Below, piece after piece: positions 12,711 through 35,400 of a DNA stretch of 64,000 nucleotides. This DNA is from Yuukianura sp. NJ FZ-2021. Taxonomy: Eukaryota. The translations under genes and the position numbers were made by a program. Under the pieces are notes generated by a model. That model was not told the origin of the DNA. It searched no databases and saw nothing but the letters and a program-made list of their open reading frames with translations. The stretch is taken from contig CM102284.1 of NCBI GenBank assembly GCA_046563655.1, positions 5,270,001 to 5,334,000 of the forward strand, read 5' to 3'. Position 1 is the first letter of the stretch. Each line of letters starts with the position of its first letter.

Positions 12711-13178
12711 ATTAAATACGACGCTGATTTTTTGATTTCAAAAAGAGAGAAAAGAAGAAGAAAGTTTAATTCCTAAACACTGGAAAATTTAAAAGTAATT
12801 AAGAAGTTTTCAATTTTAAGTGGAGAGTAGTGGTCAATTGATTGATTAAATTGTTCAAAACGCTATCCGGATATTCTGCGGAAGAAAAAGGTTCCTCACC
12901 CACCCCGCACCCTTGCTTTGGGTGGGGAGCCAGTGGCGGGAAAAAATGTGAATTTTTCAATTCACAATAAAAAACATCTGACATCAAATCTGATTTCCAA
13001 TTTGTTCTTGTTCAATGAAAGAAAACTGTTCAAAATGAAATTAACTTCTAATTAACAAGTTAACTTAATTAAAGTTAAAGTAACTGAAATTACTTCCTGG
13101 AGTACAATTTGGTAGCTACGTCACTACTATCATCAGACAGGTCAGCTGAGCTCTGATCGGAAGTCAGTCATCCTCATC

Positions 13179-15712
13179 ATGGGTAGTGTTGCCAATGTCG
13201 CCCGGTTGCAACAGAACTTAACATCAAAGAAGGCAGAGTTGGCTGAAATTACAGAAGAATTGAGTAAATTGAATGCTAGGAAGCGAAAAGTGGAGAAGGA
13301 AGTCAAGTTGCTAAAAGAAGAATTGGAGTTTCTAAATTCCAGTGATTCGGGTCATAGTCGTTTTGATGGAGACGACTTTCCGTGGTCCAAAGAAGCAACT
13401 GCAAAGCTGAAATCAGTGTTCAAGATTGATTCATTTAGATCTTATCAAAAAGCGGCCATAAATGCGACAATGAGCAAGATTGACTGTATTCTAATTATGC
13501 CGACAGGTGAGAAAACCAATAGTGCAATGACTCAACTGTTGGACATGGCTTTATTTTAACTGGCGTATTCTTGTATTATTGTTAGGTGGTGGTAAATCGC
13601 TTTGTTTTCAACTCCCAGCGATTCTTTCTGACGGAATTACGCTGGTCATCTCTCCATTACTGGCTTTGATGGAAGATCAAATTCAAGGACTTGCAGCATT
13701 GAATATACCGTCGGCCCAGCTAAATTCGCAAACCCACAAAGATGAAAATAAGAAAATCATGACGGCAATGATTGATCCTGCTTCAAAACTAAAATTGCTG
13801 TATGTGACACCGGAGCGTCTCGCAAAATCGAAACGTTTTATGTCACAGTTGGAAAAGATGTACAAAATGGGAAGGCTTGCCAGGCTGGTAATCGATGAAG
13901 TTCATTGTTGTTCCAGTTGGGGACACGATTTCAGGTAACCTCCAGTCACAGTGACATAGAATGTCGGGAGGAGTCCCGCTATTATAAAAAAAAAATTTCC
14001 AATTTCATCTTTATTTTCAGACCAGACTACAAGTTTCTTGGAATCTTGAAGCGACAATTCGGTGGAGTTCCCATCATAGGACTAACAGCTACGGCGACAT
14101 CAAAAGTGTCACTGGACATTCAAAAGATGTTGAATATGGAAGGGTGTCTCATCTACAAAGATAGCTTCTTCCGACCGAATCTCATATATGAAGTTTACGA
14201 TACTGTATCCACCAAGGACCGTGTGGAAGAGCTTGCAGAATTAATCAACGAACGCTTCAAGGGACAGTCGGGGATAATATACTGTCTAACCATTTCCGAT
14301 GTGGAAAACGTTACATCCAAACTACAGAGTCTGGATATCAGCTGTGATCGATACCATGCTCAGTTGGAACCTCATGATCGTTCCAGAATTCAATCGCTTT
14401 GGTACAAGAACGAAATTTCCATTATCGTCGCTACTGTTGCGTTTGGATTGGGGATAAACAAACTGGATGTCCGTTTTGTTCTTCATTTCTCTATTTCGAA
14501 GTCACTAGAAAATTTTTATCAGGTAAGGGATTGACGTTGATCTCAATTCTACAGTTGATTTTATTGGTCGTATGCTTAATGCCAAAGTTACCGTAACCTT
14601 GCCTTGACTCACAGGTCAAAGTAAGGTTTTCATATGTTTAAGAGGAAACCCATTTATTATTTTGTTGTCATTCTACAGGAAAGCGGACGTGGTGGTCGTG
14701 ATGGCTTGGAAGCCTACTGCATTTTGTTTTACCAACTAAACGACGTATTTCGTGCAACGTCGATGATGATGGCTGAGAAGAACGGAATTCAAAACGTGTA
14801 CAACATGCTCGAATACTGTTTGGATCGAGACACTTGCCGAAAGCAGCTGATTTCCCAACACTTTGGAGATGCTTCGGACAGTGACTCTTGTCAAGGAATG
14901 TGCGACAACTGCTTAGCCACGAAGTTAGCTGAAAATGGAAATCATTCCAAACCTGGTGTCGAGACACTAAATGTTGCTCCACTTCTGTCAGACATACTCA
15001 AGTTGTTAAACCATGGAGAAAACACGGAACAGCGAGTTACGATCATCAAACTAATGAATGCTTGGTTTTCGAAAGGAGAGAAGAAACTGCGGTTGGATGA
15101 GGTCAAGGTTCCGAAGTATTCAAGAACCCTTTGCGAATCCGTGGTAGCACGTTTGTTACTTGATCAGTACCTGAGTGAGGAGTTTCATTGTAAGTGGAAT
15201 ATAATCGAAACTTACTAAATACTTGGTGTAAATTAGTCTAATTTCTCAATTGATTTACAGTTACTCCATACGCTACAATCTCTCATCTTGTTCCTGGACC
15301 GAAGAAGCATCAAGCAGAAACCGCCTTAAATTATACTTTCCCTACAAGTGCTTCGACCTTTTCTGTCTCAAAAATGAAGCGATATTCTCTTCCTGTGAAA
15401 TCAGCCACTGTGACAGTACTCCCTGGAACCACCAAAGTTCCAGAGCAAAGTACTTCTTCCAGTATCAGTTCTTGTGGAGTTACCAACGGCTTTTCCCATT
15501 CTGAAGACGACGAAGAACGTGAGAGCAGTTACTTTGAAGCATCTCCTCTGAAAACATCCAATACCAACCCGACACCTAAAAAGTTTACGTTCAAACCACC
15601 GTCTCAGTTATCCTCTAAATTGGCAAACGGTTCGACACCGAAAAAAAGGAAGATGGTTATCGATTCAAGCAGTGACGAAGAGGATGCTGATGAAGTAGTC
15701 TGTATTAATTGA
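13179..15712 (+). CDS. RECQL: ATP-dependent DNA helicase Q1 (RECQ1)
   Basis: N-terminal coiled coil; MPTG/GGKSLCFQLP; DEVHCCSSWGHDFRPDY; QESGRGGRDG; RQC Zn motif CRK...CQGMCDNC; RECQ1-type FHFTPYATISHL; no HRDC domain seen. Confidence 0.95.
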
Positions 15713-16434: not shown

Positions 16435-18895
16435 ATGTTGGCGTCCCTGCAGAATTTGGATATTCAGCGACCAGGTCATTTGGTGCTGGTGGGGTCATCA
16501 ATCGCTTTTGGCGGGGTCATAAGCGTCTACAGCTTCAAAAAGTTAATGTTCCTCAAGGTAAACGGGCTCTACGAATTAAATTCATTAAATTTTATGCTTA
16601 TTATGGTTTATGATTACCTTGCTTTGATGCAATTTGTTCTTGTTTTGGTAGGAACGACGACGCTTGAGGAAAGTGACAAAGCGGAAACAAGAAGAGAGGG
16701 CAGCAGCGTTTGCGGAACTGAGAGCCAAGTATAAGTTGACAAAAGAAGTCCGCAATATTCTGGAAACGCCAACAGACCAACTCATTGATAAACTTCAGGC
16801 GAGAGAGGTCACGGCCAAAGCCGTTCTGCAAGCATTCATTTACAAATCGCTTCAAGTAACTGATCAAACTAACTGCATAACGGAGTACATTCCACAAGCT
16901 GTGGTAAGATGTTGAAAGAAAATCTAGCATATTTTGAAATACTGTCCAAAGTTGCTTATTTTTCAAAGGAATGGGCTGAAAAATTGGACAGTTTGGGGTC
17001 AGTCAAGGGCCCCCTTCATGGAATCCCGTTCTGTGTCAAAGATGACACGGACATTAAGGGAATGGACTCTACGTTGGGATATGCCAAGTTTTTGTATGAC
17101 CCAGCAGCTGAATCTGCAGCGATCGTCAAAGTACTTCGAGATTTGGGTGACTTTAAAAAGCAAACGATGGATTCTGTTTTAAACTAAAAAGTTAAAAAGT
17201 TAATTCTGATTCGGGTTTGAAAAATACTTGCAGGCGGCGTGCCATTTTGTCGCACGAATGTTCCCATGTCCCTGATTAGCTTTGGAAGCTCCAACCCAAT
17301 ATTCGGGACAACATTTAGTTCCCAATTTCCAGAGAGGAAGTTAGGTCCTGGTGGCTCCAGCAGTGGAACTGGGTCTTTGGTGGGATCTGGTGGGGCCATT
17401 TTTGGCCTCGGCTCGGATATTGGTGGCTCTGTTCGAATTCCAGGTAAATTTTGATTTTATGCTTCAATTTTCTTTCAACCTACATTTTGCAACTCTTATT
17501 TTCATATTCTCAAATTGTTTAAATCACCTTTCAGCCCACTGTAACGGGATTTGCACCTTGCGACCAACAGTTGGAAGACTCTGCGTGAAAGGTGTTGGAG
17601 TCCGAATTCTGCCTGGTTTGGTGGGAAGTTAGTAAAAGCTTAATACAAAATACTAGTCAAAAGCAATGACACTGACAACTGCTAGGAATGTTTCATGCTA
17701 CGACGTTTTCTCCAATTTTAGTCCACGGCGTCTCTGGCATCTTAACTCCACAGCCGCGTTATTTAGCCCTCATCTTCAAATCAATCGTCGAAGGAGATTT
17801 GCAAAGAAAGTACGACGGAACTGTGGTTCCCGTTCCTTGGAATGCTAAGGTAAGCCACAAAATTGTACCAATTTTTGCAATTTACAATTCAATTAGTTTA
17901 AAGAACTTTTTCTACTGCTGATCTCTTTTTTTAAGATGTTCAACTCATCTAACAGTCTCAAAATCGGATACTACACGTCAATCCCTATGTTTCCAGCGAT
18001 TGGTTCAACAGAGAAAACTGTTTTAAATGCAAAACAGGCCTTGGAAAGCAGGGGTCACACCCTGATTCCCTTTGACCTCGGTCCTGAAAGCATCCCTCAA
18101 ATATGCGAGTTATTCGGGGACTTTGCATTTGCTGACCACGGGAAAAACCTCATAGACCTTCACTATGGCGAAGAAGACGGAGTTACCATGAGACATTTGT
18201 GGATGCTATGGATTCCTGTTTGGATTCGGCGCATAGGATCTGCCTTACTCAAATGGATTCCAGGATGTCAAGAATTGGCCCATGACCTCAGCACTGGATT
18301 CAACTCGGACACTTCCGTCAAGTTGTGGAAATGCATGAAACAACGAGATGCGCATGTTGAGCATGTTCTGTCCTGTATGGATCTATTGCAGTTGGACGCT
18401 ATCCTCGCCCCAGCATTTCCGTGTGCTGCTCTTCATGTCGACCAGTTTAATGACCCAAAGTTGTTCAGTAAGTTCGAAATTTGTGATTTTGAAGCTCGAA
18501 TTTTTCAAATGCAGAACTAAAAGTAAATTGTTCACTTTTTGTCCAATAGTAGCTGCATGCTATACAATGATTTGGAATCTGCTTGACATGCCGGCGGGTG
18601 TGGTCCGGTTTGGAACTGAAACTGGTAAAGATGGAAGAGAAAGTAGAAGCGATGACAGTCCTGCATGGAGGAGAGCAAATAAGGTGAAATTACAACTCTT
18701 TGCCACTAAATTTTTAAAAATCGTTCTAAAATTTTTGACCTTTTGACCTTTGGTAAATTTCAGGCAATTGCTCAATCCGTTGGAATGCCCATAGGAGTTC
18801 AAGTGGTTGGAAAAAAGTTTGAAGAAGAGATGGTTCTTAGGATTATGAATGAATTGGATGATATTTACCAAAATGAACTTTTGACCGAATCTTGA
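16435..18895 (+). CDS. Fatty-acid amide hydrolase-like amidase (paralog 2)
   Basis: GPLHGIPFCVKDD, RTNVPMS, PGGSSSGTG, GSDIGGSVRIPAHCNG, WNLLDMPAGVV, GMPIGVQVVGKKFEEEMVLRIM; TGA 18893-18895. Confidence 0.9.
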
Positions 18896-19198: not shown

Positions 19199-22100
19199 AT
19201 GCATAAAGCTCTAAGCAATATTCTGCAGCAGTATCTCCGTCAAGAGACGCTTGTTACTGGAGAAAATGGAGGAGTAGATGAGGAGCTACTGGAATCCCTA
19301 CACAAATGGTGAGATTTTTGGTTCTGATGAACCAAATTTTGAAAAAAGTTCAACTTTTTTTTGCAATTTTCAGTTTTCTACCAAAGTTCTAAGAGCTGCT
19401 GTTGCAATACAACTGGAATGTCGTCTAAACTTTCATTTTGGCTTTCCATTTTTTCAGTTTGGAAGAGAAAGGTGTGTTGAAGGACGTCCACGCATTTCTT
19501 CGGAAGCGACTTGTTGCTGTCCTTAAGGGCACTTGGCCACAACTCTTCGATCACTTTCGATCAGACCGAGATCTAAATCCAATTGTTCTGAAACTAATAG
19601 AAGACTTCCTTTGTTCTCATAAACTTCTGTTCACTCTCTCCATCCTCACGACAGAACTGGGAGATGCCTTTTGTCCCAAAGGTAAATTCACTTTCACTTG
19701 TTAACTAACTTTCTCTAACCCAATTTAAACTAAAATTTTACTTTTAAAACTTAATTTGCCAGTGGGGTTTGGAAAGTTGTCTTCTCTGGATGCAGAAGCT
19801 CTTCTGTTCAACCTCGGAGTTCGACCTGACACTGTTCCTTCTCAGAAGATACTTGAGAATTATGCATCTACCAAAGGGAACAAGAGTCTCTTTGAATGTA
19901 TCATCAGTTTCTGTCCTGCTGGAATTTTTGGAAGTACTGAATATACTGGACCAGTAGTTTCCAAAGAAGTTCCTGAACAAGGACAAGGACAAAAGGAAAT
20001 TAGGTCACAACTACTTAAGAATATTTTGACACTTGATGAACGACTGAAGAAGGTTGATGACAAATTCCATAGGTCTCAACAACAGCAGCATCCAAGCAAG
20101 AAGAATACAAATCTCAAGAGAGTCGAAAACATGTCAGTTGATGAACGTTTCAGACACTTCGCACTCGATTTGGAACGTGACAAGCAAATTCAGCTACAAA
20201 TTGCAATTGACAAGTTAGTTCCATGAGATTCCCCAAAATCATCGCATTTCATGAAATTTTGATAACTTTTTTCCATTTCAGATTCAAAAGTGAAGAAATA
20301 AGTCGGATCAAAGAAGAAATTGAAACGGATCAAAAGTTTGAACTATTGAGGAAAGAGAAAGAACTTCTGGCAAATTACGAAGAGAAAGTGATTCACCTCA
20401 AAAATAATTTGGAACGAGAAAAGGAAGTCTGGGTGATTGAAAAGACACAAAAGGAGAGAGAAATTCTGGACAAGAGAGAGGAACTGTTAGAAGCGATTCA
20501 AAGTGCTCATGAAAAACGAAACGAGCAGAAACGCTTTTCAGAAGTAGCGACGCAAACTATTGACGCTGCAGAAGGATTGGTTCAGGTCGAAGCGATTGAC
20601 GCTTCGGGTGGGAAAGTTTCGGAAATTGATTCAATGTTTTTATTTGCCAAAACACCGGAACAAAGAGACATGGAAAGAACGTATCTTCTTAGAGAAGCCA
20701 AGCTAAAACTAACAATTGAAAAGTAAGTATTGAGTTTGACCTTGGCTGATTTTTTCAAAATATCAAAAATTTTAATTTTTCTTATGCTTATAGGCTCCAG
20801 AGGGAAATCCAATCCCTTAGAAAGGCTCCTTCTCCAACGAAAGCCAGGAAAACAATTTCCAGAAACAGGAGAAAGGATGAAGAGTCCAGTAAAGTCAGTG
20901 AAAGTGACAGCTTCAGTCAAGACACGCCACAACGTCACCGTACAGCAATTCGTGAATCTGTCATGCCAAAGTCAAGGCCAATAGAACCCGGAATTTCACC
21001 AAGCAGAAATTCTAAGGAGAAGTCAAAACGCTCGAGAGTGTTTTACAGATCGGAAACTCCCGGAAAAGATAATTGGACCAATCACTTCATTTCTCCAGCC
21101 ACTGCTGACAATACAGACACCGTGGCCTTTCTCCAGTATCAACTGGAGTGCCAAAGCGAAGAAATTGAAAAGCTACGAAAAGCCATGGAGCAAAGTAAGC
21201 AAGCAAAATTACCGCCAGTTGTACCTAAGGCAACATTCCAGAAACCTACGGCGCGGCATATTCCAGTACCATCACCGCCACAAATTCCCCAGTGTTTAGA
21301 AAGTTCCGATGTTGATGGTTTTCTTCGCGAGGCTAAACAACGTATTTCAGACATTGAAAAAGAAGCTACGCTAGTAGAACAAACCCTGAAGCGAATTCAC
21401 AGCAGCGATCCACTAACTTCCAATGGGTCATCGCTGCTACCAGATTTTCTGGAGAAAAAGTTTCTCTCATCCAAGCCGCCTCCGCCTCGTCCAGAAATTC
21501 CAGAACTGTTGCTCCAGCGTCTCAATTCCCTCCAGGAGCAATTCTCTCGTCCAAGGAATCTTCAGGTTCCAATTCGTCGAATACCAGATATTCCATCTAT
21601 TCCAGTAATTGAGAAGACGGTAAGCTTCGACCGACTGGACAACGATCCAGAGTTTGAAGCACTTTGTCTCCGATACCGGCAGTTTCTAGATTCTCAAGCC
21701 CTTCAGGCTCCAGCAGTGTCCAGAAATACCTCCAGTCGTCACAATTTATTTCCAGAAGAACATGATGCGTCACTTCTTCAGAAAAATCGCAGCGATAAGA
21801 TGATAGAAGCTGCTGACGACGGAACCTGTTCTCGTTCACTCCCATCTTCTCCTCCCCCTGCCAGAAAAACTGCCAGCATTTTCAAAAAAATCCAAGAAGA
21901 TGATGCTGAAACGAGTTCTCCTTCGTCCATTTCCTACTTAAGAAACGAAGGGAAAAATGACATTGACAAATCCTTGGACCGTGTCGCAGTGACTTCTGCT
22001 TCTCCTCCACTAAAAACCGTGGAAAAAGAAAGTGGTGGTGGTGAATTGAGTGAGGGAGTGTCATTGCACAGTTCGGCCACTCGATGTGGAGCTTTGGTGA

Positions 22101-22603
22101 AAAATAATGTGGGTGGGACAGGACACGGTGGCGGTGGGGAGGACGACAGGCGTCATGGCAGTAGTGACGAGAGTCTTAAGACTTCATCTGCTGGAACTAC
22201 GCTCGAATCATCCTCAACTTCCGTCTTTGTACCTAAGTCGCTGGATCTCCAGGAAAAAGCTGGAACAGGAACTGGAACTACTACTAAAGAAAATCTGGAA
22301 GTGAAAGGTAGCAGCGTTGTTCAGGGGAGCCGGAGTGGTGTAGAGAAAGGATTTGTGGAAGATTCAAAATCTAATCCGATCAATGCCACTTCCAATTCAA
22401 CTTTTCCAATGTCCTTCATGCCCTTTAACAACGAACAAAAAGTTGCTCCACCACATAAGTCCCACCTTAACACTAAATCTTTGGCCCCACCACCAGCCCC
22501 ACCCAATTTATTTGAAGACCTGGAAGAGGAACTGGAGGATCTCGGTCCGATAGAAACCAGCGAAGACTTGGCAATGGATGAAAATCTTTTTTGGCAAATG
22601 TAA
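19199..22603 (+). CDS. OFD1: OFD1-like centriole/basal body protein (LisH plus coiled coil)
   Basis: ELLESLHKWLEEKGVLKDVHAFLRKRLV; LisH LIEDFLCSHKLLFTLSILTTE; LDERLKKVDDKF...FKSEEISRIK coiled coil recall the OFD1 N-terminus; long disordered C-terminal exon. Start codon inferred. Confidence 0.75.
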
Positions 22604-23218
22604 TTAGTTCGTGGTTTAATTAGTTTAAGATTTCAGGAAAGTTCTTTTTTCAAATTCTGGCGAAAGGTCAGAGGTGAAATGTCAAAAACTTAAACTTCAA
22701 TCATGTGTTCATGTTTTTCGAGATTTTAGAATTTGGTTTTGAAAGAAATCGGTGACTCCGAAGCAGAAAGTAAAAATTTAGAGTACAAAATTGAATTTAC
22801 TTTCACTTTCAGTTCAATTTTAAGTTTTACAATGCTTTGCAATTTCATATTAAAGTTATTTTCTACGTGTTAGTTTCAGTTTAACCTCATGACGAGCGTC
22901 TTTGTTTAACAAAACCGGTTTTGATTTTCGCATTAGGAGTCCCTACAACCTATTATGTTATATATCAGTTCAGAGATTAACAATTCTGTGGGAAAACCAC
23001 TTGTGTTTTGAAGTGGGTTTCTATACTTTACAATACACTTTATAAAGTTACAATCATGTGTCAAACTCTATCATAAAACTGCATGTTTGCTTAACATAGT
23101 TTTAAAATTGAGCTGTTCTCAGCGTGCGAGGTGACAAAGCTCACTTTTAACTTTGCCTTCAAGCTGAACATTTGACAGTTAGTTATAGTACAGCACACAG
23201 GTCAATTTGACTCCAAAA

Positions 23219-26200
23219 ATGTTCGGATCTTGTTGCTGCCAACAATGGATTGGCGGAATACTGATGGCTCTGCTGACCTGGGTAATGTGGTTGGTGGCTC
23301 AACGGATTATCGTAAGTTTTTATGATTTTGGATTTCGGAAATTTCAAATTCGGCGATTTGAAGCTCATACTGAAGTCAAGGTCATGTTGTATTTTTTTAG
23401 GCTAAGAATGAACTTGCGCCTAAGCTGAAAAAGAAACAGAAACAACGAGAAGAGGCATTTAAGCAAGTTGAAAGAAAGTACGGAACTGTGACCCCAGAGG
23501 TCAAGAAAATCATTGACCTTTCGGATGACGAACTGCTGGATCAACTCCAGAGCCGGAAACTTACAGCAACTCAAGTGCTACAGGCTTTTATTACCCAGGT
23601 TAGTTTTTAATTCAGAAATTTTTGAATTTAATTTTAAACTTCAAACTAACACTTGAAAATGTGGTTTTTCCAGGCTTACCAAGTGCAGAAGGCACACAAT
23701 TGCGTGATTGAATTCCTTCCAGAGGCACATGATTTGGCTGAACAGTTAGATGAAATGAAAGAGGTCAAAGGTCCTCTCCATGGTTTGCCAGTTAGTATCA
23801 AGGATAACGTTGATTTCAAAGGACACGACAGGTAACTTTCACTTTTTCAAATTTTGGTTTTCTAAAATCTTAACAATTTTTTGGCTTTTTAGTACTCTGG
23901 GATTGGTCAAAAAGTGTTTTGACCCTAAAACCGAACATGCCGTGATTGTCAAAGTGTTGTTGGATCTTGGAGCAGTGCCTTTCTGGTAACTCTTTCTAAG
24001 ACTAAATTTTAATTCTTATTAATCTAAATAATTTTATTTAATCAAATTTTATTTAGATTTCATAAAAAAATTCAATTTAACAGTTGAATTTAAAAGGTGA
24101 TGTGGTTTTTTCAAAAATTGCAAGACCCGTAAAAGAAAATGAAAATTTTGATGCTACAACCAGACGCCATAAAAAAATTAATTAGTACTCTCTGCAGTAT
24201 CTGTGTGGGAGAAATCTCGATAGCGGAATGCGAGATAAGGGAATTCTCGATGGGGGAATGCGAGATAACGGAATTCGCTTTAAGTTATCGGCGATAACAT
24301 ACTAAGTGACATCACAAAGTCAGATTTAGTGACGTCACAAAGTTGAGAGAAAGCGGAACCTTTTTGTTGTGTAGAATATCCGGATAGTTGAGCCAAGCAA
24401 GTTTTTATGGCATGAACAGAATTATTGTAGAATTGCTATTTTATAGTACATACATGTACAATGATTTGACTTTAGTTTGTGATACTCCCTCTCCTTAATT
24501 AATTTAATTTAACATTAATTAATTAAAATTCTTGATTTTTTTTAGTAAGACGAACGTGCCACAAACACTGCTTAGGTAAGGAATCAGACGTTTTTGGAGA
24601 CGCAGGAAATGTGTTGACTAAAACTAAGCCAAATAAATATTTCATTTTCAGTATCTCATGTTCCAATCCCGTTTTCGGCGAAACCACCAACCCACTCAAT
24701 CCTAAACTCACATGTATGACATTACTAACAAAAAGTATTTAAATTTTGAAAATTTGGAATTTTAAGAAAATTTTATGAATAGCTGGCGGTTCCAGTGGTG
24801 GTGAAGCTGCTTTGATTGCTGGCGGTGGAAGTCGGTTGGGAATTGGCAGTGACATTGGTGGATCCGCTCGAATTCCGGCTCACTTTTGCGGTGTTTTCGG
24901 ATTCAAGCCGACGAGTTTCAGGCTCAGGTTTGTGCAAACATTCAAAATTTCAGATTTTCAGACTACGAATTCAACTCAAAATTTTGGAAATTGATCTTTT
25001 TAGCCCTCGTGGATTTTCAGCGTCCATTCCAAACGTCATCGGAAGTAAGTATCAAACTCAGAGTTTTTTTTTTTTGAAAAATTATATTAATTTTTTTTAA
25101 CCTTCCATAGTCTCTGGATGTCCAGGAATATTGTCCAAAAATCTTGATTTGATGATCAAAGCTACGAAAAGTTTGATTGAAAACAACAGGCAACACAACT
25201 ATGATCAATTAACATTGCCCATTCCATGGAACAACAAGGTTAGTCTCATTGCAACAAAAAATCGATTTATGAACATGCATTTTTGAACTCAGCAAAAATA
25301 TTGCATCTTTTGCTTTTTTAGCCATTTGAAGAGAATCGAAAACTGCGAATTGGATACTACACGTCATTTCCAACTTACTTCCAGCCTGGTAAGTGGGTCA
25401 TCCATTTCCAAAATGCTGAATTGACAGAACCCCATAATTTATCGATTCATGTCAAAACGGAAAAAATGCTTTCGAAATATAGTTTTCTAAAAATTCTATT
25501 TTCGTTTGAATAGCTGGAGACACTGAAAAAGTAGTTCTGGATGCCAAGAAAGCCCTGGAAAACCATGGACACACGCTAATTCCATTTCAGATGCCAGACG
25601 GATTCGAGATTATGCGGTTAGGTTCTGCCTTTACTTTTGCTGATCTGGGAGCCGCCTTTCGGAAATACTGGTAAGAAGGAAATGAAAATTGATTTTTTTT
25701 AAAATCTGGAATAGAATTTAGCGTTTCCCCTTAAAACATCCTTCTCAACTGAAGTTAGAAATAGAAATATTGAATTCCTTTCAATTCAATCTCTGGTGAA
25801 TGACCGGTTTGAGTTGTTGATCCGAGAAAAACGAAATTAGGGAAAGCGCTAATCAAATGACAGGAAATGCCAAGAACTTTGCCATTTCCTAAGTTCTAAA
25901 GAGTTACAACCCCAGATTATCTACGACCTTTGACCTTTTGAACATATTTCTTAAACTAACAAGGAGTCCAGCTTTCACTTTTCAAACTTGACTGAGCTGA
26001 GATTCCATGAAGTTCAATTGAGCAAAGGAAAGATAACAAACGAAGGAGAAATCAAAGAAAGTTTCAGTTTTTTTGGTAAAGGAAAAATCGACTCATCTTT
26101 TTGTAAACAAAAATCAGAGTCCCTTTGTTTTTATACAATTTACTACAAAATTGAGACTACAAATTTTGAAAGCTGCGGAAATTTCGTTTCTATCATACTG

Positions 26201-29200
26201 ATAAATATTTTGAATTTTCGGTGCTTTTGTTTTTGGAGAATTTACTACTCAGTAAGTTACCAAACAGGTAAGTTAATTAAGTTCTGAGTGATGTTTTTGG
26301 TAAGACTCAAAGGATTACGTTAGGTAGTTTTGGACTAAAGTTGGATCTGGTTTTATTTGGTCTTTCAAAGGAAAATTTTGAGAAATGACGAAATAGATTT
26401 TGGTTTCATGTTCTTGTCCTTTTGACTTATGCAGCTCTGCGAAAAATTTTTGTTAATGGCTTTTGTTGAATTTGGCAAAGTATTTCTGAAGTGACGTCTT
26501 GGTTTAGCAGCAGGTAGGATAATGTTGGGTGCAGCCGAGGATTTGAACTGGTTGAATGGTCGGACAAGGGTTGCAGCAAGGTCCACAGCATCGCGATGCA
26601 CATCGCTTCCGACGACATGGCACTGGACCCTGTGCAACAAATTTTGGAAAATCGATTAATTCCAAATCCAAGACAAAAGAATTCGAAAAATTTGAAAGTG
26701 CTTACGTAGCAAAGTGGTTGGCAAATCGTTGGTCGGCACCAGTCCTTCCATCGTGGCGGAGCTGGAGCAGGGCAGTAAGTCATCGTAGAGTACCGGCGCA
26801 CCTATTTCATACACAAATGTTGGAATGAAACTTTACAACCTTTAACCAAATGACTTACAACGCTGCAGTATGATGGATAAGGCCGATAGTCAGGGCAACA
26901 CATCTTCGGAACTCCTCGAATGGGATCTCGGTGACAATTGCGTGGAGGACAGCATCGATTTGGTGGCTAAAAATGAGAGAAATCTTCATTTCAGCTTTCT
27001 TATTATTTCTGCTTCTAGTTAGAACAGCACTTACACAGGTTGGAACGCATCCAACGGATTGGCAAGGACGGGCCTAAAAATTAAACAAACTTTTATGACA
27101 CTTACATTCTCAAAAACGCGTCTAAAAAGTAACACCTTACATTCATGGTGAAGTATGAAGTCAAAGTGGTCACTTCTCAAAAATGGCTGGAATTTGGAAA
27201 CAGATTTTGGAGAGTAATTTTGGAAGAAGTGACGTGCTGCCTCTATGCCTCTGCTCTACCGCAGTGAAGTTTTCAAGAAAAATAAAAACTTCCTTCTTAT
27301 ATGCCGGAATTTTTCATAACAAACTTTTTCAAACGTTACCGTGGTAACGTAATTTTTCACATTTTTCACCCACATTTTGTGGGTGTAAGTGTTGTTAAAT
27401 AAATAATTTATTACCGTGGTAACGTGTTGTATCGTGCCACTGTATTGTTTTTCTCATTATAATTTGAATTTCAATAAAATCGAATGTTACTCGTTTCATC
27501 GAAACTAGAATTAGAATCGACAGACCTCTATCCGGATACTGACAACGTAGTCAACAAAGCGACTTCAAGATGATGGGCAGTTGGACTAGAGGGGACTCAG
27601 ACCCGTCCCAAGTTCTATCCCTCCATCACAAAAGTCGAACTAGTTCTGGAAAGGCCGTGGACTTGGAAGGAGAACTCGGAGAAATTCTGCGCCGGCGTAG
27701 CGCGAATCGCAGCGCATCGGGAGCTGGAGAGCCGCAAGGCGGTCGAGCTTCTCGGGTTTCGTCTCTTAAGGATTTCAATATTTTCAAGAAAAGTATCACT
27801 TATGACTCACAGTACAAGGAATATGAAGAAGAAGTGGTCTTCGTTGAGCCAGTGTTCAATGTCAAGAGAATCGTTTCCCCTCAGGGGGAAATAATGCTGT
27901 CGGCTTTGGCCGGAGTTAGTCGGAAGATTGAGATCATGGCAATGTTGCCAGAAGTTATGGCTCGGCTCATCTATGGAGATATGGATTTGGAGCGTGTTCT
28001 GGGCGAGGAGGTCGTCGATGCCATTTTGCGTGTGTACTATACACAAGCGGTAAGAAAACTTTGAAATGGCTTCACTGCAGATTTTATTTCATGTTATTTT
28101 TTAAATTTTAGTACTGGATTGAATACAGAAACGAAGGCGAAGATCCGATCCTTCCGTCTGGTGTAACGCTAGAAGAGCTCAAAAAACGCTTGCAGAAAGG
28201 AGCCCGCTATCCTGCGCCACAATCCAAAGGTCACCACGTCATTCTGCAACAAGGTTCAGGAAACGACGAAGAAATGGCTGGGGAAGATGTTGCCCTTAGA
28301 CCAGCCGTAACGGCATCTTCAATCTACAGCAGCACTTTGCCCAGAACTGCTGCTCCGTCGAAAGTCAGCATTAGATCTCGTGGTTACGGAGATTGGGTGA
28401 CGCCTGGTGACCTCGGAATTCCAACAGAGCGCTACTTATCCGACGTAGTCAAAGCTGGCTATCGACAAGTCTTCCGACTCATCTCGTCAAACCCAGCCAT
28501 CATGACATACTTGGTAGCATTTATCCCACCAGAAGTGACTCAGGCTGTTAAAGTACTCTACAGCCAAATGCAATTACTGGAAGGACTCATGTACGTGAAG
28601 TTTCTGATGACCCCGGAAGAAGGTAAGCTACGCTCATCCTTCGAATTCCTTTCAATTACTCGCAACTTTTGACAATCGGCTTATATCCTAGAAATCCAGC
28701 GCCTTCAGCATCTCAAACACATTTGGATCAGAGAGCAGCGGCTGCTGAGAGAGTACCGCGCTCTAGAGGTATGCTTTCTTAACCGCAGAATTTTGAAGAA
28801 AAAAAGTTTCCAACAAGACGCTAATGTAATTTTTTTTTTCTAAATTTTGGTATGTCTTAACAGGAACAATACGAAGAGATTGGAAATAATAAAGAGCGAG
28901 TGATGTTCGAATTGAACCAAGGAATTAACGCGCTCATCGTCCAGATTGACTCCGTCAGCGACTACACTCGTTATGAAATCAACAAGCTGAGGTAATTTCT
29001 TAAATCCTTAAACATTTCGAAATCTGAGATTTCAAAAATTAATTTCTTGAATTATCCGGTTTCGAATTGTGTAGTGGCGAAGGAAAAAAGCAGGACTTGG
29101 TGAATACCAAAAAATTCGACCAAGACTTGCAGCAACTCGACGGAAACTTTCAAGCTGCACTGAAATTTGCTTTGAAATTGCGTGCCACATATGCTGAAAT

Positions 29201-32200
29201 TGAGAACGGATGGAGACAACAGCGGAATGCGTTGGAAGCAGATTTGCAGGAGACGATTGTGAAGTATGACATAGAGATGAAGGCCAGACAGCAAATACTG
29301 GACGAGTGCTTGGCAACGGAAGAGGCAAATAAAGTTGAAATTGCTCGACTCGAGGAGATCAACCGAAAGGTAGAAAAGAGATACGCTCAGTTCAAGGATG
29401 AAACGCGCGTCAAAAAACGTCGGAAGAAAAGCTCCAAAAAGAAAAAGGTACCAACGTTGTAAAACATGTAGTATTTTTAAAAAATATAAATTTTTAACCA
29501 AAAATTTTACATTTTAGAAGAGCAAGGGAAAGAAAGGAAAGAAGAAAGGACGTGGTCGAAGTAAAAAGAAAGGCGGGAAAAGCAAGAGCAAGAGTAAAAG
29601 CAAGTCGAAGAAAGGCAAGGGGAAGGGGTCAAAGGGCAAGAAGGGCAAAAAAGGCAAGAAAAATCGGAAGTCACCGCGCAGTGAAACTGAGTCCGAAGCA
29701 GAATTCGGTGGCGAAGACTCTCAATACGAAGATGAAATGGAGGGCGAGGGCTTGAGTCCGAAACGCGGTAATATTTAAAAATAAATTCGGTTTCTTCGAA
29801 TTGTCCATATTCGTTTTCCTTTTTTGCTGTAGCTGGAAAGAAGAGAGCTAAAAAGAGCAAGAACGGTAAGGACAAAAAGAGCAAGAAGGAAACTGATGCT
29901 GCGTATTCCGACAAAGATGGACCGAAGGACTTTGACCACAACCGCTGGTTATTGGGCGAAGATGATACTGGGCAAGAAGAAATGGAGGGTGAAGGAATGT
30001 GGCAAGAAATGGCTTTTGCAATGCAAGCGCAACAGAAAGTCAAGATGGCTGCAACTTCTGAACAGCGAAAACTTGGGAAGAAGAAATCGAAGAGCAAGAA
30101 GAAAAGCAAGAAACGAAAGGGCTCCAAAAAGAGCAAACGAAAGAAAAAGACTTAAGTCACGTTTTTTCAAAACTAAAATCAAAACGTTTTCTTAAATCCA
30201 AATACAAACGTGCCAAATATGGAACTTTGAACCTTAACCTAAGAGCAAAGGATCAGGGAGTGGAAGAAAAGTGCCGAACTCTGCTTAAACGCAGCCACAT
30301 ACACATTGCTCTTTATTACTTTAGTTCACAAATGAAATCTTTGAGAAGTTGTTGAGCATGTTGAAATTTATAGTTGAGATTAGTCTAACCGATACAGGCG
30401 TTCTTTTTTTCAAAATTCGAAAGAGAAAAACGAAAAAGAAAAACTTTGCTACTTGGTACTAAATTTTTGTTTAGTTTATAGCTGCACTCAAGCCGTGTCG
30501 TTGACACTTGGAAGAACTTTTTCCTCCCTGGAGAAAGTTTACATCGCCTTTCTCCCGCTTCGAAAAAGTGCTTCACGGTTACTTCCAGTGTCTCTTGCTA
30601 TCTTACACTGCGACGTGTGTTCTCTTGCTTGGCGTTTTACAAAGTTAACTAAGAGACTTTAGTTACTTCTGAGAGTGTTAATAGCCTTTCTTCCTGCTTC
30701 GTATTTCCCAAACCTAACCGTAGTTTCTAACATCTAACTTTGTTCATTTCAGGGCAGGAGAACCAATTCCACCATCTCTTAGGTTCAATGTCATCTCTTT
30801 CTATCCTCCACTTTGGGTCAAGAAGCTTATGGCTTTCATTCTCCGTCTGCCCATTCCATTTCTCCATTCGCCAAGAGCAGCTCAATTTGCCAGAGGTAAG
30901 ACAACCTAATTTAAGATATGCTGTGTCTCTATTCTAATAGTCTACGAATCTAGAATCTTGGCTAGAGGGAAAGCTAGAGATAGGAAATACCTTTTAGGAG
31001 TCTACTTTAGCCTAACTAATTTGGAGTTTGAAAGTATTTTCGGACGGAGGGAGTAACTATGTGGCTTTTACCCAACTCAAGCACTCTTTTCCATGCTGTG
31101 TTGATAAGATGTGATGGACATATTGTGGTGGCAGTTATTTGGAGTGAAGAGAAAGTCTTTCTCCTAAAACTAAAAGTAAATGAAGCGGGGAAAGGCATCA
31201 GGCAGTTGCCATTTCCCAACCGGAAACTACTAGCATAAACCTAAAAACCTAACCTGAAAATACGTAAAATCTAAAATCACAACCTAGAGAGAGGTTTGTT
31301 ACGGCTTTTTAGGTTTAATGGCAAATGGACAGGGCACATAAGGGCTTCGATGGATTTCGTATTACTTTCTCCGTACTAAAGAAATTCCATTTTCATTTTT
31401 CTGCTTTGAACTGGAAAAAATTTGGTTTTGATGTTCACTCACAATGCAAATTCAAAAATTAAACTTGGTTTTCGTAATGACTCAACCTAACTTTTTTTTC
31501 TCAAAATTTTGAAGGTGGGGATGGAATTACGAAAGACTTGATGGATTCTCTTGGAGTGAAGAAAGCTATACTTCAAGACTTGATTCAACGTTGGAAAGAC
31601 CAGAAGATCGACGTTCTCCTATGTCCCACCCTTGCATTTCCAGCCTTTCCAACTGACACGAAAATTAAAATGCAGGGTAAGTGCGGTTGAATGACTGTGG
31701 TTTTATGGCCCTCTTCCCCCTGAAACCCGGGTATTAGGATCCACCCTCCAGACTTTGGCAAGATTCCTCTTGTGAAAACTAAAACGGGACACGGAAACGT
31801 GCTCTTTTAGGTTTTGGGTGGATTTTGATGATGCCATGGGCGAAGGATCTAATTTTGTAATTATTCTCAATGTTGACTCAAAACCTTCTTCTGTTTGATT
31901 TTGTGTTCAAATTAGCCTCTGCTGTTTACACTTTGGTTTGGAACCTCTTCGACTTCCCTGCTGGAGTGGTTAAATTTGGAAAAGAGTCTGGCAAAAACAT
32001 TCTTCCTTATGAAAATTTTGGGGATTTGATGCTCAAAGCAGTTCCGGGGGTAAGCTAAAGTTCAAACTAAAAAACTAATTTTAGAATTTGCAAAGAATTG
32101 TTGGAGAAAGTCGCTGATCTTGCGTCGCTGATTTCCTTTTACCGTTTTTCGAAATTTTTAATTCAAAATCAGGGCAGCAGCGATTGATCCGTGACGTGTT

Positions 32201-32468
32201 GAGTTACTTATGACTTTCTTTTGAAAATAGCCTAAGCTAACGTTTATTTTTATGGAATCATGGTGTCCTTTTGTACACCACGATCCATAAACTTGTTTTT
32301 TTTTCTTGGTCTGAAAAGTAACTTTTGTATGTGGTATTTTTGTAGTCTGTAAAGGAAGCCATTGGGATGCCAATTTCCGTCCAAATCGTCGGTCTTCCCT
32401 ACGAGGATGAAATGGTTCTTTATGGAATGAAGTGTCTAAACAGCCTTTCACAACATGTCAACCCATAA
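23219..32468 (+). CDS. Fatty-acid amide hydrolase-like amidase (paralog 3), split by a 5.1 kb intron containing two nested genes
   Basis: 5' exons: [46 protein letters not shown], ending AFRKY-TG at 25670. It resumes in matching phase at 30753 (G-AGEPIPPS...PLWVKKL), then [40 protein letters not shown] 32466-32468. Colinear with paralogs 1 and 2. Confidence 0.85.
24211..24343. repeat. Intronic tandem repeats, probable small transposon remnant
   Basis: 30-bp unit x2 (24211-24240, 24241-24270) with internal TCTCG...CGAGA inverted repeat, then AGTGAC(A/G)TCACAAAGT x2 (24305-24320, 24328-24343), inside an unusually long 560-nt intron. Confidence 0.6.
26504..27146 (-). CDS. Unrecognised 124-aa Cys/Pro-rich protein, nested antisense in the FAAH-3 intron
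   Basis: Five exons (27146-27141, 27073-27035, 26966-26859, 26801-26706, 26629-26504); all four introns are GTAAG...AG and phase 0, giving one open frame [23 protein letters not shown]...[29 protein letters not shown]. Confidence 0.85.
27335..27423. promoter_or_regulatory. Twin RFX X-box motifs in a bidirectional promoter
   Basis: GTTACCGTGGTAAC at 27335-27348 (within near-palindrome ACGTTACCGTGGTAACGT) and ATTACCGTGGTAAC at 27410-27423, between divergent ATGs at 27146 and 27570. Confidence 0.75.
27570..30155 (+). CDS. IQCD: Dynein regulatory complex subunit 10 (IQCD)-like, with an extended Lys-rich tail; nested on the same strand in the FAAH-3 intron
   Basis: KIEIMAMLP...[36 protein letters not shown] and [21 protein letters not shown] parallel conserved IQCD blocks as I recall them (KVELVTLL...MLGEDV, VLRLLLSNP, FLFEKLLTSPME, VETEIENWIQKYDTEMGEKQ); the exons splice in frame. 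Confidence 0.78.
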
Positions 32469-35400
32469 ACCTCAAAATTCAAACTTCCTTCCTTCCATTT
32501 CCAGCACTTTCGGCTTCTTCTTGGCTTTATTTTTGAAAAAAGAAAAGCAACTCCAAAAAGTTGTTTAAAACGAAAAGCTGAAAATGCTTTTTCTGGAGAA
32601 AGTGAATTGAATAAAGGATCCATAAAACAGAAATGAAGTGATAGAAAATGTCATTTTTGAAAAAAAAGAGGAGCTTTCACTTTCGTTTTCTACCGCGAAA
32701 TGGAAAATGGTGAAAGCACATTTATGTTTTTCCGTGTTCTGGACAAAGTCCGTCGGGAGTTGACACAACTGTCATGAAAAATATACGCTAGAATGTGCTA
32801 TACAAAGTTTTTGATCTTTCACGTTATGTTAAGCTAGGTTAGTTTTTGATCTGTTTTTATACTTATGTTAGCTTTTGCAGTCTAATCTTATGTTTGCGAT
32901 GTTTTTGTCTCAAACTTTATTAGTTTAACAGTTTGAACAGGACACTAACCGAAATTTACCTTCAGGAAAGTGTACTAAAGCTCTTTTGGTTCCGTTTTTC
33001 AGAAAGTTTAAACACTGCAGGGGAAGTTCAGTCCGCAAAACAGCGCATCGCCGCGATTCTTCGTTTTCTAAAAAAGCTAGAACAGAATTTTTTCTCTCTC
33101 GACTTTGAAAAAGTTGAAGCATGCGAAACAGAGCCACTGCTTCACAGCTCCTCCACAAACGAAAGCATCGGGCCACGATGGATCTTGTTTCCATGTGAGC
33201 TTTCTCTAAGCACTTTCTCTTCCTTTTAGTTCTCATCTGACGCTTGAAAGCGAAACACTTGAATCAGCGCACGCTCTTCAGCATTCCTAATTCACACAAT
33301 TCAAACATTTCATTTTATTGGATAAGTGAAAAGTTTCAAGTGAAAATGAGACTAGAATATTTTGCGGCTTTTCCAAGTAAACACATTTGGTTAGGTTAGG
33401 GTTATAGGCTATTTTCGTCTAAAAGTTGACGTCGTGTGGTAACAACATATCCTAACTTTCCAATAGTTTTCGAACAAAATTTCAGTTTTCTCCCCTTGAG
33501 ACAAATTTTCAGACTAAAAGTGTCAAAACCATCTGCCACACTGTCTCGCTCTCTTCAAAAGCCAAAAGCTTTCTCCATTTGGTTGGAAATCCACGTTGTT
33601 TACGTAAAGTTTCATCAACAGCAGCAGTTCCTAGTTTCAGAACATTCAATTTTGGATTCTACCCGCTTCGGTTCACTCTTCTTCTTGACAAGGAAGCAAA
33701 CACTACCCGAGTATTTCGGAGAACGATTTCGGTGTAAACGAAAATAAAGTTGTTGTTCGTGAATCTTTGTTGTTCGGTTCGATGGATTTCGCAAGTGTCT
33801 TGAACTCCTTCCACTTCTAAAAGTTCACAGCAGTGGAATCGTCCATCTTCTGCGGCTGTTTTGCTCAGAAGTGAGTTTTTTTAGGTACTTTCTTTGAAAA
33901 TGGTAAACAAAAAAGAAAAGTGAAAGTTTGATCTTTCAAGAGACAAAATTTATTGAGCTGAAGTCTATTGTTTTTACCAACGCTTCCTGCAGTCAATTTC
34001 AAACTTTTAACGCTTTCTTTCTGAATCTTTTTTTTAAACTACCGTTTGATTCAAATTCTTCTGGATTCGGGATTTGCACTTCACAGGAATGAGGAACATT
34101 TATTAAAAACTTTTTCTTTCAACTTAGTACTCTAAAAGATTGGGCGAAAGTAGAAGTAATTTTGACAGCCTTAATCTGAATAGGAAGAAAGTTAAAAAGC
34201 GATTAAGTCCCGTCGCTTGAAGCTAAACTTTCACTTTTTAATTTCTTGTAATCTTAAGTTTCAAAATAAGTGTGGGCTTGTTCAAAGAAGAACTGAAAGC
34301 GAGCTTGACAAAAGTTGACTTTAGTTCGCTTTGGTCTAAGCACTTCTTAATTTCGGTAGCTCCATTTCTTAAGTTTATTGTTCAAAACATAAATAAATCG
34401 CTGTTTCAGCCTTCTTGGTCCAACAAGAGCCACCACGAGTCCAAAAGGCTCATATTTCTTAACTAAAAATGAAAATCTGAAGCTCCGAGAAAGTTATGAA
34501 ATAGGGTCGGAAGGTTTTTTGTTCTGGAGTAATAAAACCCGGGAGACTTTTGAAGCGGAAAAAGACAATTTCAAAGGAATTACTCTCGAAGAACGAAATT
34601 GTCACACTTTCTCTCAATTTTGTATTGCAAGCACTTTGTCACACATCTCGACATTAATTGCTTAGTTTCACACCTTGGAAATTAGAGCATCACAGACTAA
34701 CGATAAGCACACTGCTGTGAAAGCAGAGCACGCGTCGTAGCACATAATTACGATCTTGGGCGTGATAGAACATGTTGGTGTACTCTAAACCCATGTTGAC
34801 TGTGTAACTTTTAAGGCAGAAGTAATATGTTGACGCTCCTGAAGTGACTGGAGTGTCAACATAAAGTCGTGACTTTCTTCGCACTTTCACTAATTTATTA
34901 CCTACTTTCACTTGTCCATGAAATCACTCCATTTGGAACTAAAGGAGGCTTTTATGCGGAGGTGTAAGGCTTTAGCAAAATCTGGAGCAGTGACAAAGAC
35001 AGATTTTGTTAGGTTAGAGAGGTTAGGTTGTCTGAGAACATTATTAGAAATTTTAGTAAGGTTGGCCATAGGTTCGCACTTTGTAACAAATGACTTGAGG
35101 ATTCCACTAGGTTAATTATGCACAAAAGAACATCGATCTGGATTCCAAAACGTGTCAAAGGTGTCTCTAACCACAAAGTTTCCATTAGGTTTAACACCGA
35201 TTTTGCATTTGGATCAATTAAAATTCGGAGGAGACTAACCTAACATTGTCCTAATGAAAATTTTCAAGAATTGGAAATTTAAATTTTGGAAACGGTATTC
35301 AGTTCTAGTGAAAATATCCATCGATTTCGATTTTGAAATGAAAGCGGGTATCGCGTTCAAATCGAATCAAATCAAAATCAAATTCAGTTTTTTTAATGAA

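Follow-up and report, generated by a model that had tools for sequence, protein, structure and literature searches.

The question raised by this locus of an arthropod-like animal is whether a fatty-acid amide hydrolase (FAAH)-type gene that breaks off at position 25670 and resumes at 30753 is a single gene with two others lodged in one of its introns, or the remains of a gene that has been cut in two. The first reading is considered the probable one: FAAH-3 is one intact amidase gene, and its intron 11 houses two independent, divergent, cilia-linked genes with RFX-type X-boxes.

Spliced models were built for five genes of the window (the whole stretch of DNA analysed, 64,000 nucleotides), with a total of 41 modelled introns; the frames of all five models are open with 0 internal stops, and the introns are exclusively GT-AG. 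FAAH-3 (23219..32468, plus strand), an amidase-signature/fatty-acid amide hydrolase paralog and the last gene in a tandem array of three FAAH-type amidase genes, encompasses 15 exons encoding 577 aa, all in frame, with 14 of 14 introns GT-AG. Exon 11 (25514..25670), the last before the long intron, ends at the donor CTG|GTAAGA, and exon 12 (30753..30895) is preceded by the acceptor TTCATTTCAG|. The join is in phase 2 and yields a Trp codon (TG|G); when exon 11 is read unspliced into the intron, a stop follows directly after this codon. Intron 11 (25671..30752, 5082 nt) is the longest of the modelled introns, 35 of which are shorter than 100 nt, and is one of 8 introns private to FAAH-3. Another of these, intron 12 (30896..31514, 619 nt), follows exon 12 and leaves it as an 'island' exon between two long introns. 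In paralog 1 (about 4114-6656) and paralog 2 (16435-18895) a single unbroken exon spans the equivalent of the intron 11 site, and exon 12 was colinear with these continuous exons on alignment. The break, the in-phase resumption, the length of the intron, the typical intron size below 100 nt and the lack of an intron at this site in the paralogs, all claimed in a preliminary description of the locus, were therefore reproduced. Host mRNA would accordingly be expected to splice across 25670-30753.

FAAH-3 has 40-41% identity with each of the paralogs upstream of it, and pairwise identity among the three is 40-43%. The Pfam Amidase family (PF01425) was matched by exon 7 (E 2.6e-21) and by exon 11, and the spliced protein carries an amidase signature with a Gly/Ser-rich motif, in the blocks SIKDN, GGSSGGE and DIGGSARIP, which, by analogy with rat FAAH, would hold the catalytic triad (Ser-Ser-Lys). 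These catalytic-type motifs lie in the 5' part of the gene, and well-conserved C-terminal blocks, including MPISVQIVG, in the 3' part. In a PDB search the continuous exon of paralog 2 aligned to residues 283-439 of rat FAAH (E 2.6e-12), and all 8 chains matched at E<=1e-3 were FAAH-1. By these matches the FAAH-3 group is nearer to FAAH-1 than to other amidases, FAAH-3 itself being linked through its 40% full-length identity to paralog 2.

Both nested coding sequences (26504-27146 and 27570-30155) lie wholly inside 25671-30752 and have no overlap with host exons. The minus-strand gene (CDS 27146-26504) was modelled in frame with five coding exons (27146-27141, 27073-27035, 26966-26859, 26801-26706 and 26629-26504) separated by GT-AG introns of 57-76 nt. 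It encodes a protein of 124 aa with 18.5% Cys and 19.4% Pro, for which no Pfam family was found, and its poly(A) hexamer AATAAA is located on the minus strand at 26352..26357, about 150 nt past the stop. Least secure in this model is its first coding exon, of 6 nt. The DRC10-like gene, on the host strand (CDS 27570-30155), has seven exons (27570-28049, 28112-28622, 28692-28768, 28864-28991, 29075-29447, 29518-29767 and 29833-30155) encoding 713 aa, laid out as conserved N-terminal helices, then a coiled coil, then a 200-aa Lys-rich tail (65 Lys).

The metagenome contig L001 carries an ortholog of the DRC10-like gene with 56.4% identity (399/707 aligned positions), in which 5 of the 6 introns of the window gene are matched in position and phase, as judged by eye; on this sequence comparison, the plus-strand gene is real and conserved. 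Exon 1 gave 4 HMMER matches (best 57% identity), with unnamed homolog fragments including P0001-P0003. Word-index searches found no annotated homolog for the DRC10-like protein or FAAH-3, and therefore no conclusion here rests on curated annotation. The gene on L001 also adjoins a Cys/Pro-rich gene, in an orientation different from that of the window. Synteny of FAAH with the ortholog had been put forward as a check in the preliminary description; neither an amidase exon nor any FAAH around the DRC10-like gene was found on this one related contig, and therefore the nesting in a FAAH intron looks lineage-specific.

The start codons of the nested pair are separated by a head-to-head spacer of 423 bp, ATG to ATG (27147..27569). 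It contains X-box 1, GTTACCGTGGTAAC (27335..27348), the half-sites of which are perfectly palindromic, and, 75 bp away, X-box 2, ATTACCGTGGTAAC (27410..27423); the two boxes have an exact 15-nt repeat in common, TTACCGTGGTAACGT, and precede the two start codons by 147-222 bp. Statistically, the X-boxes stand out: when up to 2 mismatches were allowed, 3 matches were observed against 0.13 expected, and at least 3 were obtained in 0 of 100 shuffles. The strictest Drosophila consensus, RTNRCC N1-3 RGYAAC in the cited part of Laurencon et al. (2007, PMC2375033), matched only these two sites in 64 kb, both within the spacer; 11 of 100 shuffles of the whole 64 kb yielded at least 2 sites somewhere. 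The spacer shows no enrichment of forkhead-type motifs (n=2; 261 of 500 shuffles gave as many or more). No strict X-box occurs within the 940 nt that precede the L001 ortholog, where the one resemblance is a weak, half-site-like GTTGCTCAGGGAT (770-782), and the sole strict match in that contig falls within coding sequence (3493-3506). According to the same part of that study (PMC2375033), the motif became predictive in Drosophila through its conservation in orthologous promoters. RFX dependence of the nested pair would be the expectation from the two boxes. The anatomy given in the preliminary description (one host, a nested head-to-head pair, a 423-bp spacer and two X-boxes) was recovered in all its sequence-level statements. 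Its 'sperm' label was a guess from amino-acid composition, Rfx/X-box control in Drosophila acting in ciliated sensory neurons, with Rfx mutant sperm motile, in the section consulted of PMC4168999.

Downstream of the DRC10-like stop, the only near-consensus hexamer is AATACA (30201..30206, plus strand), 46 nt past the stop. No AATAAA or ATTAAA was found in the 597 nt between this stop and FAAH-3 exon 12; in the Cys/Pro-rich gene, FAAH-3 and the L001 ortholog an AATAAA lies 42-150 nt past each stop, the shortest distance (42 nt) being that of the L001 ortholog. Six host-strand AATAAA hexamers occur elsewhere within intron 11, and therefore the missing hexamer after the guest stop is weak evidence for read-through adaptation.

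It is unlikely that the plus-strand gene encodes a lineage-specific coiled-coil protein rather than a DRC10 ortholog, with a PDB similarity that merely reflects generic coiled-coil composition. A profile of exon 5, the largest coiled-coil exon, made from two sequences from two species, was searched against the PDB (177,635 distinct sequences), and 3 of 3 chains at E<=10 were named Dynein regulatory complex protein 10 (8j07, 8.2e-4; 8glv, 0.074; 9fqr, 0.24). A generic coiled coil would retrieve myosins and kinesins, whereas only DRC10 was retrieved, from three PDB entries, with colinear alignments near the C-terminal third (residues 308-393 in the human chain, which has 449 aa, and 193-272 in that of Chlamydomonas, which has 356 aa); the X-boxes also suit a ciliary gene. 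However, exon 5 alone matches, the exon-1 and exon-2 profiles retrieved no DRC10 chain from the PDB, and the 713 aa of the protein far exceed the 356-449 aa of the solved chains. A control profile of the 42-aa exon 4 gave 7 PDB matches, 0 of them DRC10, single-sequence searches gave no matches, and a Foldseek search with the predicted model of exon 1 (pLDDT 62) found nothing (best E 2.7). The IQ motif was absent by Pfam from every exon (E<=1 or E<=10), and strict and relaxed regular expressions found no instance in the protein (713 aa) or in the L001 gene read in three frames. This calmodulin-binding motif gives IQCD its name and lies C-terminal of the coiled coil, a position partly visible in the Chlamydomonas DRC10 alignment. 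As no IQ motif was found, 'DRC10-like' fits the gene better than 'IQCD'; of the two names used in the preliminary description, 'DRC10' has support and 'IQCD' is not apt.

It is judged quite unlikely that the DRC10/Cys-Pro segment, by insertion or rearrangement, broke FAAH-3 in two, leaving exons 1-11 and 12-15 as relics that are no longer joined by splicing and do not make up one working gene. Such an event would account for an intron ~50x the typical local size that paralogs 1 and 2 do not have, for the immediate stop on reading through exon 11, and for the 3' part being the most diverged region of FAAH-3 (identity with the paralogs is 28-34% there and 45-46% in the 5' part). However, the frame stays open through all four 3' exons (186 codons), their splice sites are canonical, the C-terminal blocks with the strongest conservation are retained, the donor and acceptor are consensus-like, and on alignment to both paralogs the halves meet exactly, with no gap and no overlap. 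With an identity of only about 40%, the paralogs must have diverged long ago, yet the 3' exons are intact. Identity between paralogs 1 and 2 is likewise lower in the 3' part (36.8%), and therefore faster 3' divergence is a trait of the family. No FAAH-like remnant was found in intron 11 or its flanks (best E 0.81), and the two halves, being exactly complementary, are unlikely to come from separate truncated FAAH copies, as the preliminary description had envisaged they might; its suggestion of a FAAH paralog assembled around a pre-existing cassette is unsupported on the same two grounds. An assembly artefact that misplaced a 5-kb gene-pair segment into the locus is barely credible: the two ends of the segment fall exactly on a donor and an acceptor that fit the consensus and have the right phase, which a random misjoin would not give, and no Ns or repeats were found at its edges. 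Apart from one 24-nt match, the intron has no repeats common to the rest of the window, and no Rfam family was found in it. It is highly improbable that the X-box promoter also serves FAAH-3, with DRC10-like transcripts running into exons 12-15 as chimeric or regulatory read-through RNAs. The lack of AATAAA or ATTAAA before exon 12 would favour this, as would the donor of DRC10-like exon 4, which has the phase (2) of the exon 12 acceptor; however, the case is purely structural, the presence or absence of a hexamer predicts poly(A) use poorly, and AATACA lies about as far past its stop as AATAAA in the L001 ortholog. Very doubtful, too, is a bolder proposal, in which the nested unit is a cell-type switch: the RFX-driven guest, without a canonical hexamer, would block FAAH-3 by transcriptional interference or run into exons 12-15, ciliated cells would lose or alter a lipid-amide hydrolase, and the recurrent Cys/Pro-rich neighbour (two species) would be an undescribed axoneme or sperm-tail partner.

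For an intact FAAH-3 with two nested genes, the following organisation is proposed. The pair would form a self-contained divergent transcription unit with a 423-bp promoter region common to both genes, from which the two strong RFX-type X-boxes would drive two proteins, the axonemal DRC10-like one from the host strand and the small Cys/Pro-rich one from the opposite strand. Expression would most likely take place in cells building motile-type cilia or flagella, such as chordotonal-type sensory neurons and possibly spermatids; expression of Drosophila DRC10 (CG13168) is listed for chordotonal neurons and testis in the relevant part of PMC6367277. The organism has kept genes for axonemal motility, as the ODAD1 gene also present in the window shows. 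A DRC10 protein would be expected in the axonemal N-DRC linker, paired with DRC9, and the ODAD1 gene is the one piece of context that supports such a location here. The host would have a promoter of its own, near 23.2 kb, and would remove the entire 5.08-kb unit as an intron, the splice sites for which are consensus-like. The host and the guest on its strand would probably conflict only to a limited extent, since the two are likely to be expressed in different cells, a tissue exclusivity that we infer, and the weak, non-AATAAA poly(A) signal of the guest may have a limiting role as well.

The locus opens no long-standing question, and its value is chiefly for annotation, as automated gene prediction may break FAAH-3 into two models or overlook the pair inside it. 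It also offers a clear case from nature of a guest with several introns on the strand of its host, which could be used to test how host and guest avoid interference, and the IQ-less, Lys-tailed DRC10-like protein with its recurring Cys/Pro-rich neighbour provides minor starting points for work on the cilia and sperm of arthropods.

FAAH-3 has the amidase signature domain and hydrophobic N-terminus of rat and human FAAH 1 (e.g. PDB 1mt5), but stands here among three diverged tandem paralogs and is compared with the solved enzyme via these paralogs only. The nested plus-strand gene resembles DRC10 (IQCD / Chlamydomonas FAP84; 8j07_10, 8glv_Ey, 9fqr_Oj) in its exon-5 coiled coil and in having the X-boxes expected of a ciliary motility gene, but differs in its length, its 200-residue Lys tail, the absence of a detected IQ motif and its conserved N-terminal helices, which have no detectable match to the solved chains. 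As in RFX/X-box ciliary promoters, both window sites agree with the strictest published consensus, and their 75-bp spacing is within the 15-162 bp found among orthologs for the paired, nearby X-boxes in promoters of the motile-cilia gene HEATR2 (PMC4168999, in part); the boxes differ in lying in a bidirectional spacer within another gene's intron, in being absent upstream of the L001 ortholog and in showing no Fox enrichment. In the portion of Lee and Chang (2013, PMC3814207) used here, 71.27% of Drosophila nested genes are on the opposite strand; with about 29% on the same strand, same-strand nesting is rarer, as the preliminary description stated, but 'much rarer' was an overstatement. The same-strand genes in that portion are single-exon in 72.53% of cases, with a median of one intron in the remainder, and show narrow, testis-biased expression; the data suggest selection against multi-intron same-strand guests via mis-splicing. 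Because most such genes are single-exon, the six-intron guest is, by this analogy, at the uncommon end of nested genes. It also differs from the Drosophila cases in belonging to a divergent pair with a common promoter, instead of being a single young duplicate. Like those host/nested pairs, the two guests are complete genes in one intron with no exon overlap and may be expressed narrowly, in a testis- or cilia-type pattern, and the host, which codes for a metabolic enzyme, contains a long intron; the locus is a well-described, fairly ordinary kind of nested-gene arrangement.

Exon peptides of FAAH-3, the third of three tandem FAAH-type amidase genes, were searched against the window using tblastn, which located three paralogs on the plus strand, and spliced models were built by hand and then checked by script. 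Paralog 1 (4114-6656, +) comprises 10 exons encoding 605 aa with introns of 70-89 nt, paralog 2 (16435-18895, +) comprises 9 exons encoding 593 aa with introns of 65-94 nt, and FAAH-3 (23219-32468, +) comprises 15 exons encoding 577 aa with introns of 89, 75, 61, 560, 76, 69, 76, 66, 83, 125, 5082, 619, 239 and 296 nt. Every one of these models is in frame, with exclusively GT-AG introns. The preliminary description had FAAH-3 interrupted at 25670/30753 by the 5082-nt intron (25671-30752), and this break was recovered exactly, with CTG/GTAAGA at the end of exon 11 and TTCATTTCAG/GG at the start of exon 12 (slashes mark the boundaries). The junction is in phase 2 and completes a Trp codon.

Two truncated FAAH copies lying on either side of the intron would offer another explanation of this arrangement. 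One intact FAAH-3 gene is favoured by the predicted exon structure because the two halves meet without gap or overlap in a three-way alignment of the paralogs (40-43% identical to each other); because the amidase signature (Pfam E 2.6e-21, exon 7) and the conserved C-terminal blocks are kept; because one continuous exon spans the positions of FAAH-3 introns 11 and 12 in paralogs 1 and 2, which, as had been claimed, have no intron here; and because a sensitive tblastn search of the long intron, intron 12 and both flanks found no FAAH remnants (best E 0.81). The junction-spanning exon of paralog 2 aligns with residues 283-439 of rat FAAH, all eight of its eight PDB matches being FAAH-1, and a word-index protein search with FAAH-3 exon 11 gave no scoring match. 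Five of the 14 FAAH-3 introns are common to both paralogs, one is shared with paralog 1 only and eight are private, so that the long intron is one of many rather than a lone anomaly.

Intron positions differ widely among the three paralogs, and paralogs 1 and 2 also have a few private ones, a pattern of intron turnover in a tandem family. The motif GGSSSGT is present in paralogs 1 and 2, whereas FAAH-3 carries the canonical GGSSGGE. Intron 4 of FAAH-3 (23986-24545, 560 nt), the next-largest upstream intron, contains a direct repeat within it (...GAATGCGAGATAA...) as well as a stretch of 33 nt that matches 12863-12895 at 88% in reverse orientation, possibly a small mobile-element remnant. A repeat and transposon search of the non-coding parts turned up only two matches to other parts of the window, of 24 nt and 33 nt, and no Rfam families were found within 23000-33000.

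The long intron holds two guest genes arranged head-to-head. The minus-strand guest (CDS 27146-26504) has five exons encoding 124 residues, of which 18.5% are Cys and 19.4% Pro, and no Pfam family matched its protein. The plus-strand guest (27570-30155) has seven exons encoding 713 residues, laid out as a disordered N-terminus followed by conserved helices, a coiled coil of approximately 330 residues and a tail in which 65 of the 200 residues are lysines. Exon 1 of this guest, used in an exhaustive HMMER search, returned four proteins, three of them short unnamed pieces of raw assemblies (57%, 49% and 50% identity); the remaining one was rejected as an unrelated repeat protein. Alignment of the exon-1 matches led to L001, a 7237-nt metagenome contig carrying a full ortholog, which was modelled with six exons and 762 aa, shares the Lys-rich tail and shows 56.4% identity across 707 aligned positions. 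Its introns match five of the six window-gene positions and phases as judged by eye, the last two lying in low-complexity, loosely aligned sequence.

This plus-strand gene had been called DRC10, and to judge from its sequence it is very probably a DRC10 ortholog. A two-species profile of exon 5 (window and L001) searched against 177,635 distinct PDB sequences matched exactly three chains at E<=10, all of them Dynein regulatory complex protein 10: 8j07_10 (E 8.2e-4, aligned over residues 308-393 of 449), 8glv_Ey (0.074) and 9fqr_Oj (0.24). Generic coiled-coil similarity is probably not what these matches reflect, since DRC10 chains alone were retrieved from that search space, and a control profile of exon 4 (A5) gave seven unrelated PDB matches, none of them DRC10. 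Single-sequence methods were silent: Pfam gave no match to the gene, word-index protein searches with exons 2 and 5 gave no scoring match, the best ESM Atlas values (0.77 for exon 2 and 0.76 for exon 1 residues 66-160) were below a useful level, and PDB searches with exons 1, 2 and 5 and with L001 exon 2/3 gave no DRC10 match. Weighed against the exon-5 result were the PDB profiles of exon 1 (A1) and exon 2 (A3), which retrieved no DRC10 chain; the uninformative AlphaFold model of exon 1 (mean pLDDT 62.2, pTM 0.29, confident solely at residues ~110-160), for which Foldseek against the PDB returned no match at E<=0.001 (best E 2.7); and the absence of an IQ motif from the gene in both window and L001, as assessed with Pfam and regular expressions. 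The name DRC10-like was adopted on this balance, and the alternative name IQCD is not apt, the motif having been found in neither species.

On L001, a second Cys/Pro-rich gene (4000-4738, +; four exons, 155 residues, 16.8% Cys, 19.4% Pro) starts 355 nt after the DRC10-like stop on the same strand, and an SMP-30/gluconolactonase-type gene (5366-5923, -) lies beyond it. Homology of the two Cys/Pro-rich proteins was rejected, as their local alignment score of 86 was reached by 129 of 500 shuffles and a CCPxR...PK.CC likeness seen by eye is not significant; the recurrence of the pair is one of neighbourhood and composition only. No amidase exon was detected anywhere on L001, which covers 940 nt upstream and 3.6 kb downstream of the DRC10-like gene. 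The synteny check proposed in the preliminary description thus found neither the FAAH nesting nor the divergent orientation of the pair in L001, the single relative compared, and the nested arrangement therefore appears to be specific to one lineage, produced either by rearrangement into an FAAH-3 intron or by growth of such an intron.

The 423-bp spacer between the guest start codons (27147-27569) contains two X-boxes, GTTACCGTGGTAAC (27335-27348) and ATTACCGTGGTAAC (27410-27423), both embedded in an exact 15-nt repeat whose copies are 75 bp apart. Allowing two mismatches or fewer, the exact X-box motif was observed three times against 0.13 expected, a count reached in 0 of 100 shuffles. Under the strictest Drosophila consensus, RTNRCC N1-3 RGYAAC, as given in PMC2375033, these two are the only sites in the 64 kb, and at least two sites occurred somewhere in the window in 11 of 100 shuffles; the X-box signal proper is the co-location of the sites in one spacer together with their mutual repeat. 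Fox-type motifs (RYMAAYA) were not enriched beside the X-boxes (two found; at least two in 261 of 500 shuffles), and no strong X-box was found upstream of the L001 ortholog. A near-perfect palindrome with 7-nt arms, CACCCACATTTTGTGGGTG, lies between the X-boxes (27367-27387) and could be the binding site of another factor. By analogy with flies, the X-boxes suggest ciliated sensory neurons no less than sperm, since PMC4168999 describes motility genes of chordotonal neurons as controlled by Rfx and Fd3F and the sperm of Rfx mutants as motile. Both chordotonal neuron and testis expression are listed for Drosophila DRC10 (CG13168) in PMC6367277. On the proposed model the two guests would be expressed together, in ciliated sensory neurons, spermatids or both, and FAAH-3 in other cells.

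An AATAAA hexamer follows the stop codon by ~150 nt in the Cys/Pro-rich gene of the window, by ~140 nt in FAAH-3 and by 42 nt in the L001 DRC10-like gene. The window's DRC10-like gene has AATACA 46 nt after its stop, and also AATGAA, but neither AATAAA nor ATTAAA occurs in the 597 nt from that stop to FAAH-3 exon 12; its mRNA is predicted to end at about 30220-30240. A weak guest poly(A) signal would ease read-through of the host; this is kept as a lead only, because six AATAAA hexamers occur elsewhere in the long intron on the host strand.

The surrounding DNA is eukaryotic, with ~40% G+C and mostly short GT-AG introns, and its domain content was assessed by a Pfam scan of 93 stop-to-stop frames. 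Exons with CLIP and trypsin domains (1-3223, +) suggest that one or two clip-domain serine protease genes lie here, and the CLIP domain is the main indication of an arthropod. Three exon-sized frames (9438-10386, -) match ODAD1_CC (E 1.5e-20, 9.5e-12 and 1.4e-11), which shows that axonemal motility genes are retained by the organism; no strict X-box was found near this gene. ODAD1_CC is an outer dynein arm docking complex family, and this second axonemal motility gene lies ~17 kb from the DRC10-like gene. Pfam further identified a RecQ-type helicase (13531-15215), an arrestin (45602-46453), amidase exons in three places and a piggyBac-type transposase (56319-57708, +; three consecutive frames, DDE_Tnp_1_7, E 2e-6 to 1.3e-26), whose broken frame indicates a probably decayed or intron-containing copy. 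Two very long open frames gave no Pfam match: 59820-63968 (-, 1383 aa) and the Ser/Pro-rich 20750-22600 (+, 617 aa), directly upstream of FAAH-3.

The nested anatomy is thus confirmed at the DNA level, the preliminary interpretation is supported in part, for the anatomy and the DRC10 assignment, and the locus is a further case of nested genes with a predicted ciliary promoter. Two small oddities stand out: a DRC10-like protein that has a Lys-rich tail but no IQ motif, and a Cys/Pro-rich gene that recurs next to it. According to the figures in PMC3814207, nested structures include nearly 10% of Drosophila genes, and 71.27% of the nested genes lie on the opposite strand. The preliminary description, which held same-strand nesting to be much rarer, therefore overstated the case, same-strand guests being a known minority class. 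Testis is the site of highest expression for 58.46% of these Drosophila same-strand guests and 72.53% of them are single-exon (PMC3814207), a comparison that places the window's six-intron guest at the uncommon end of the class.
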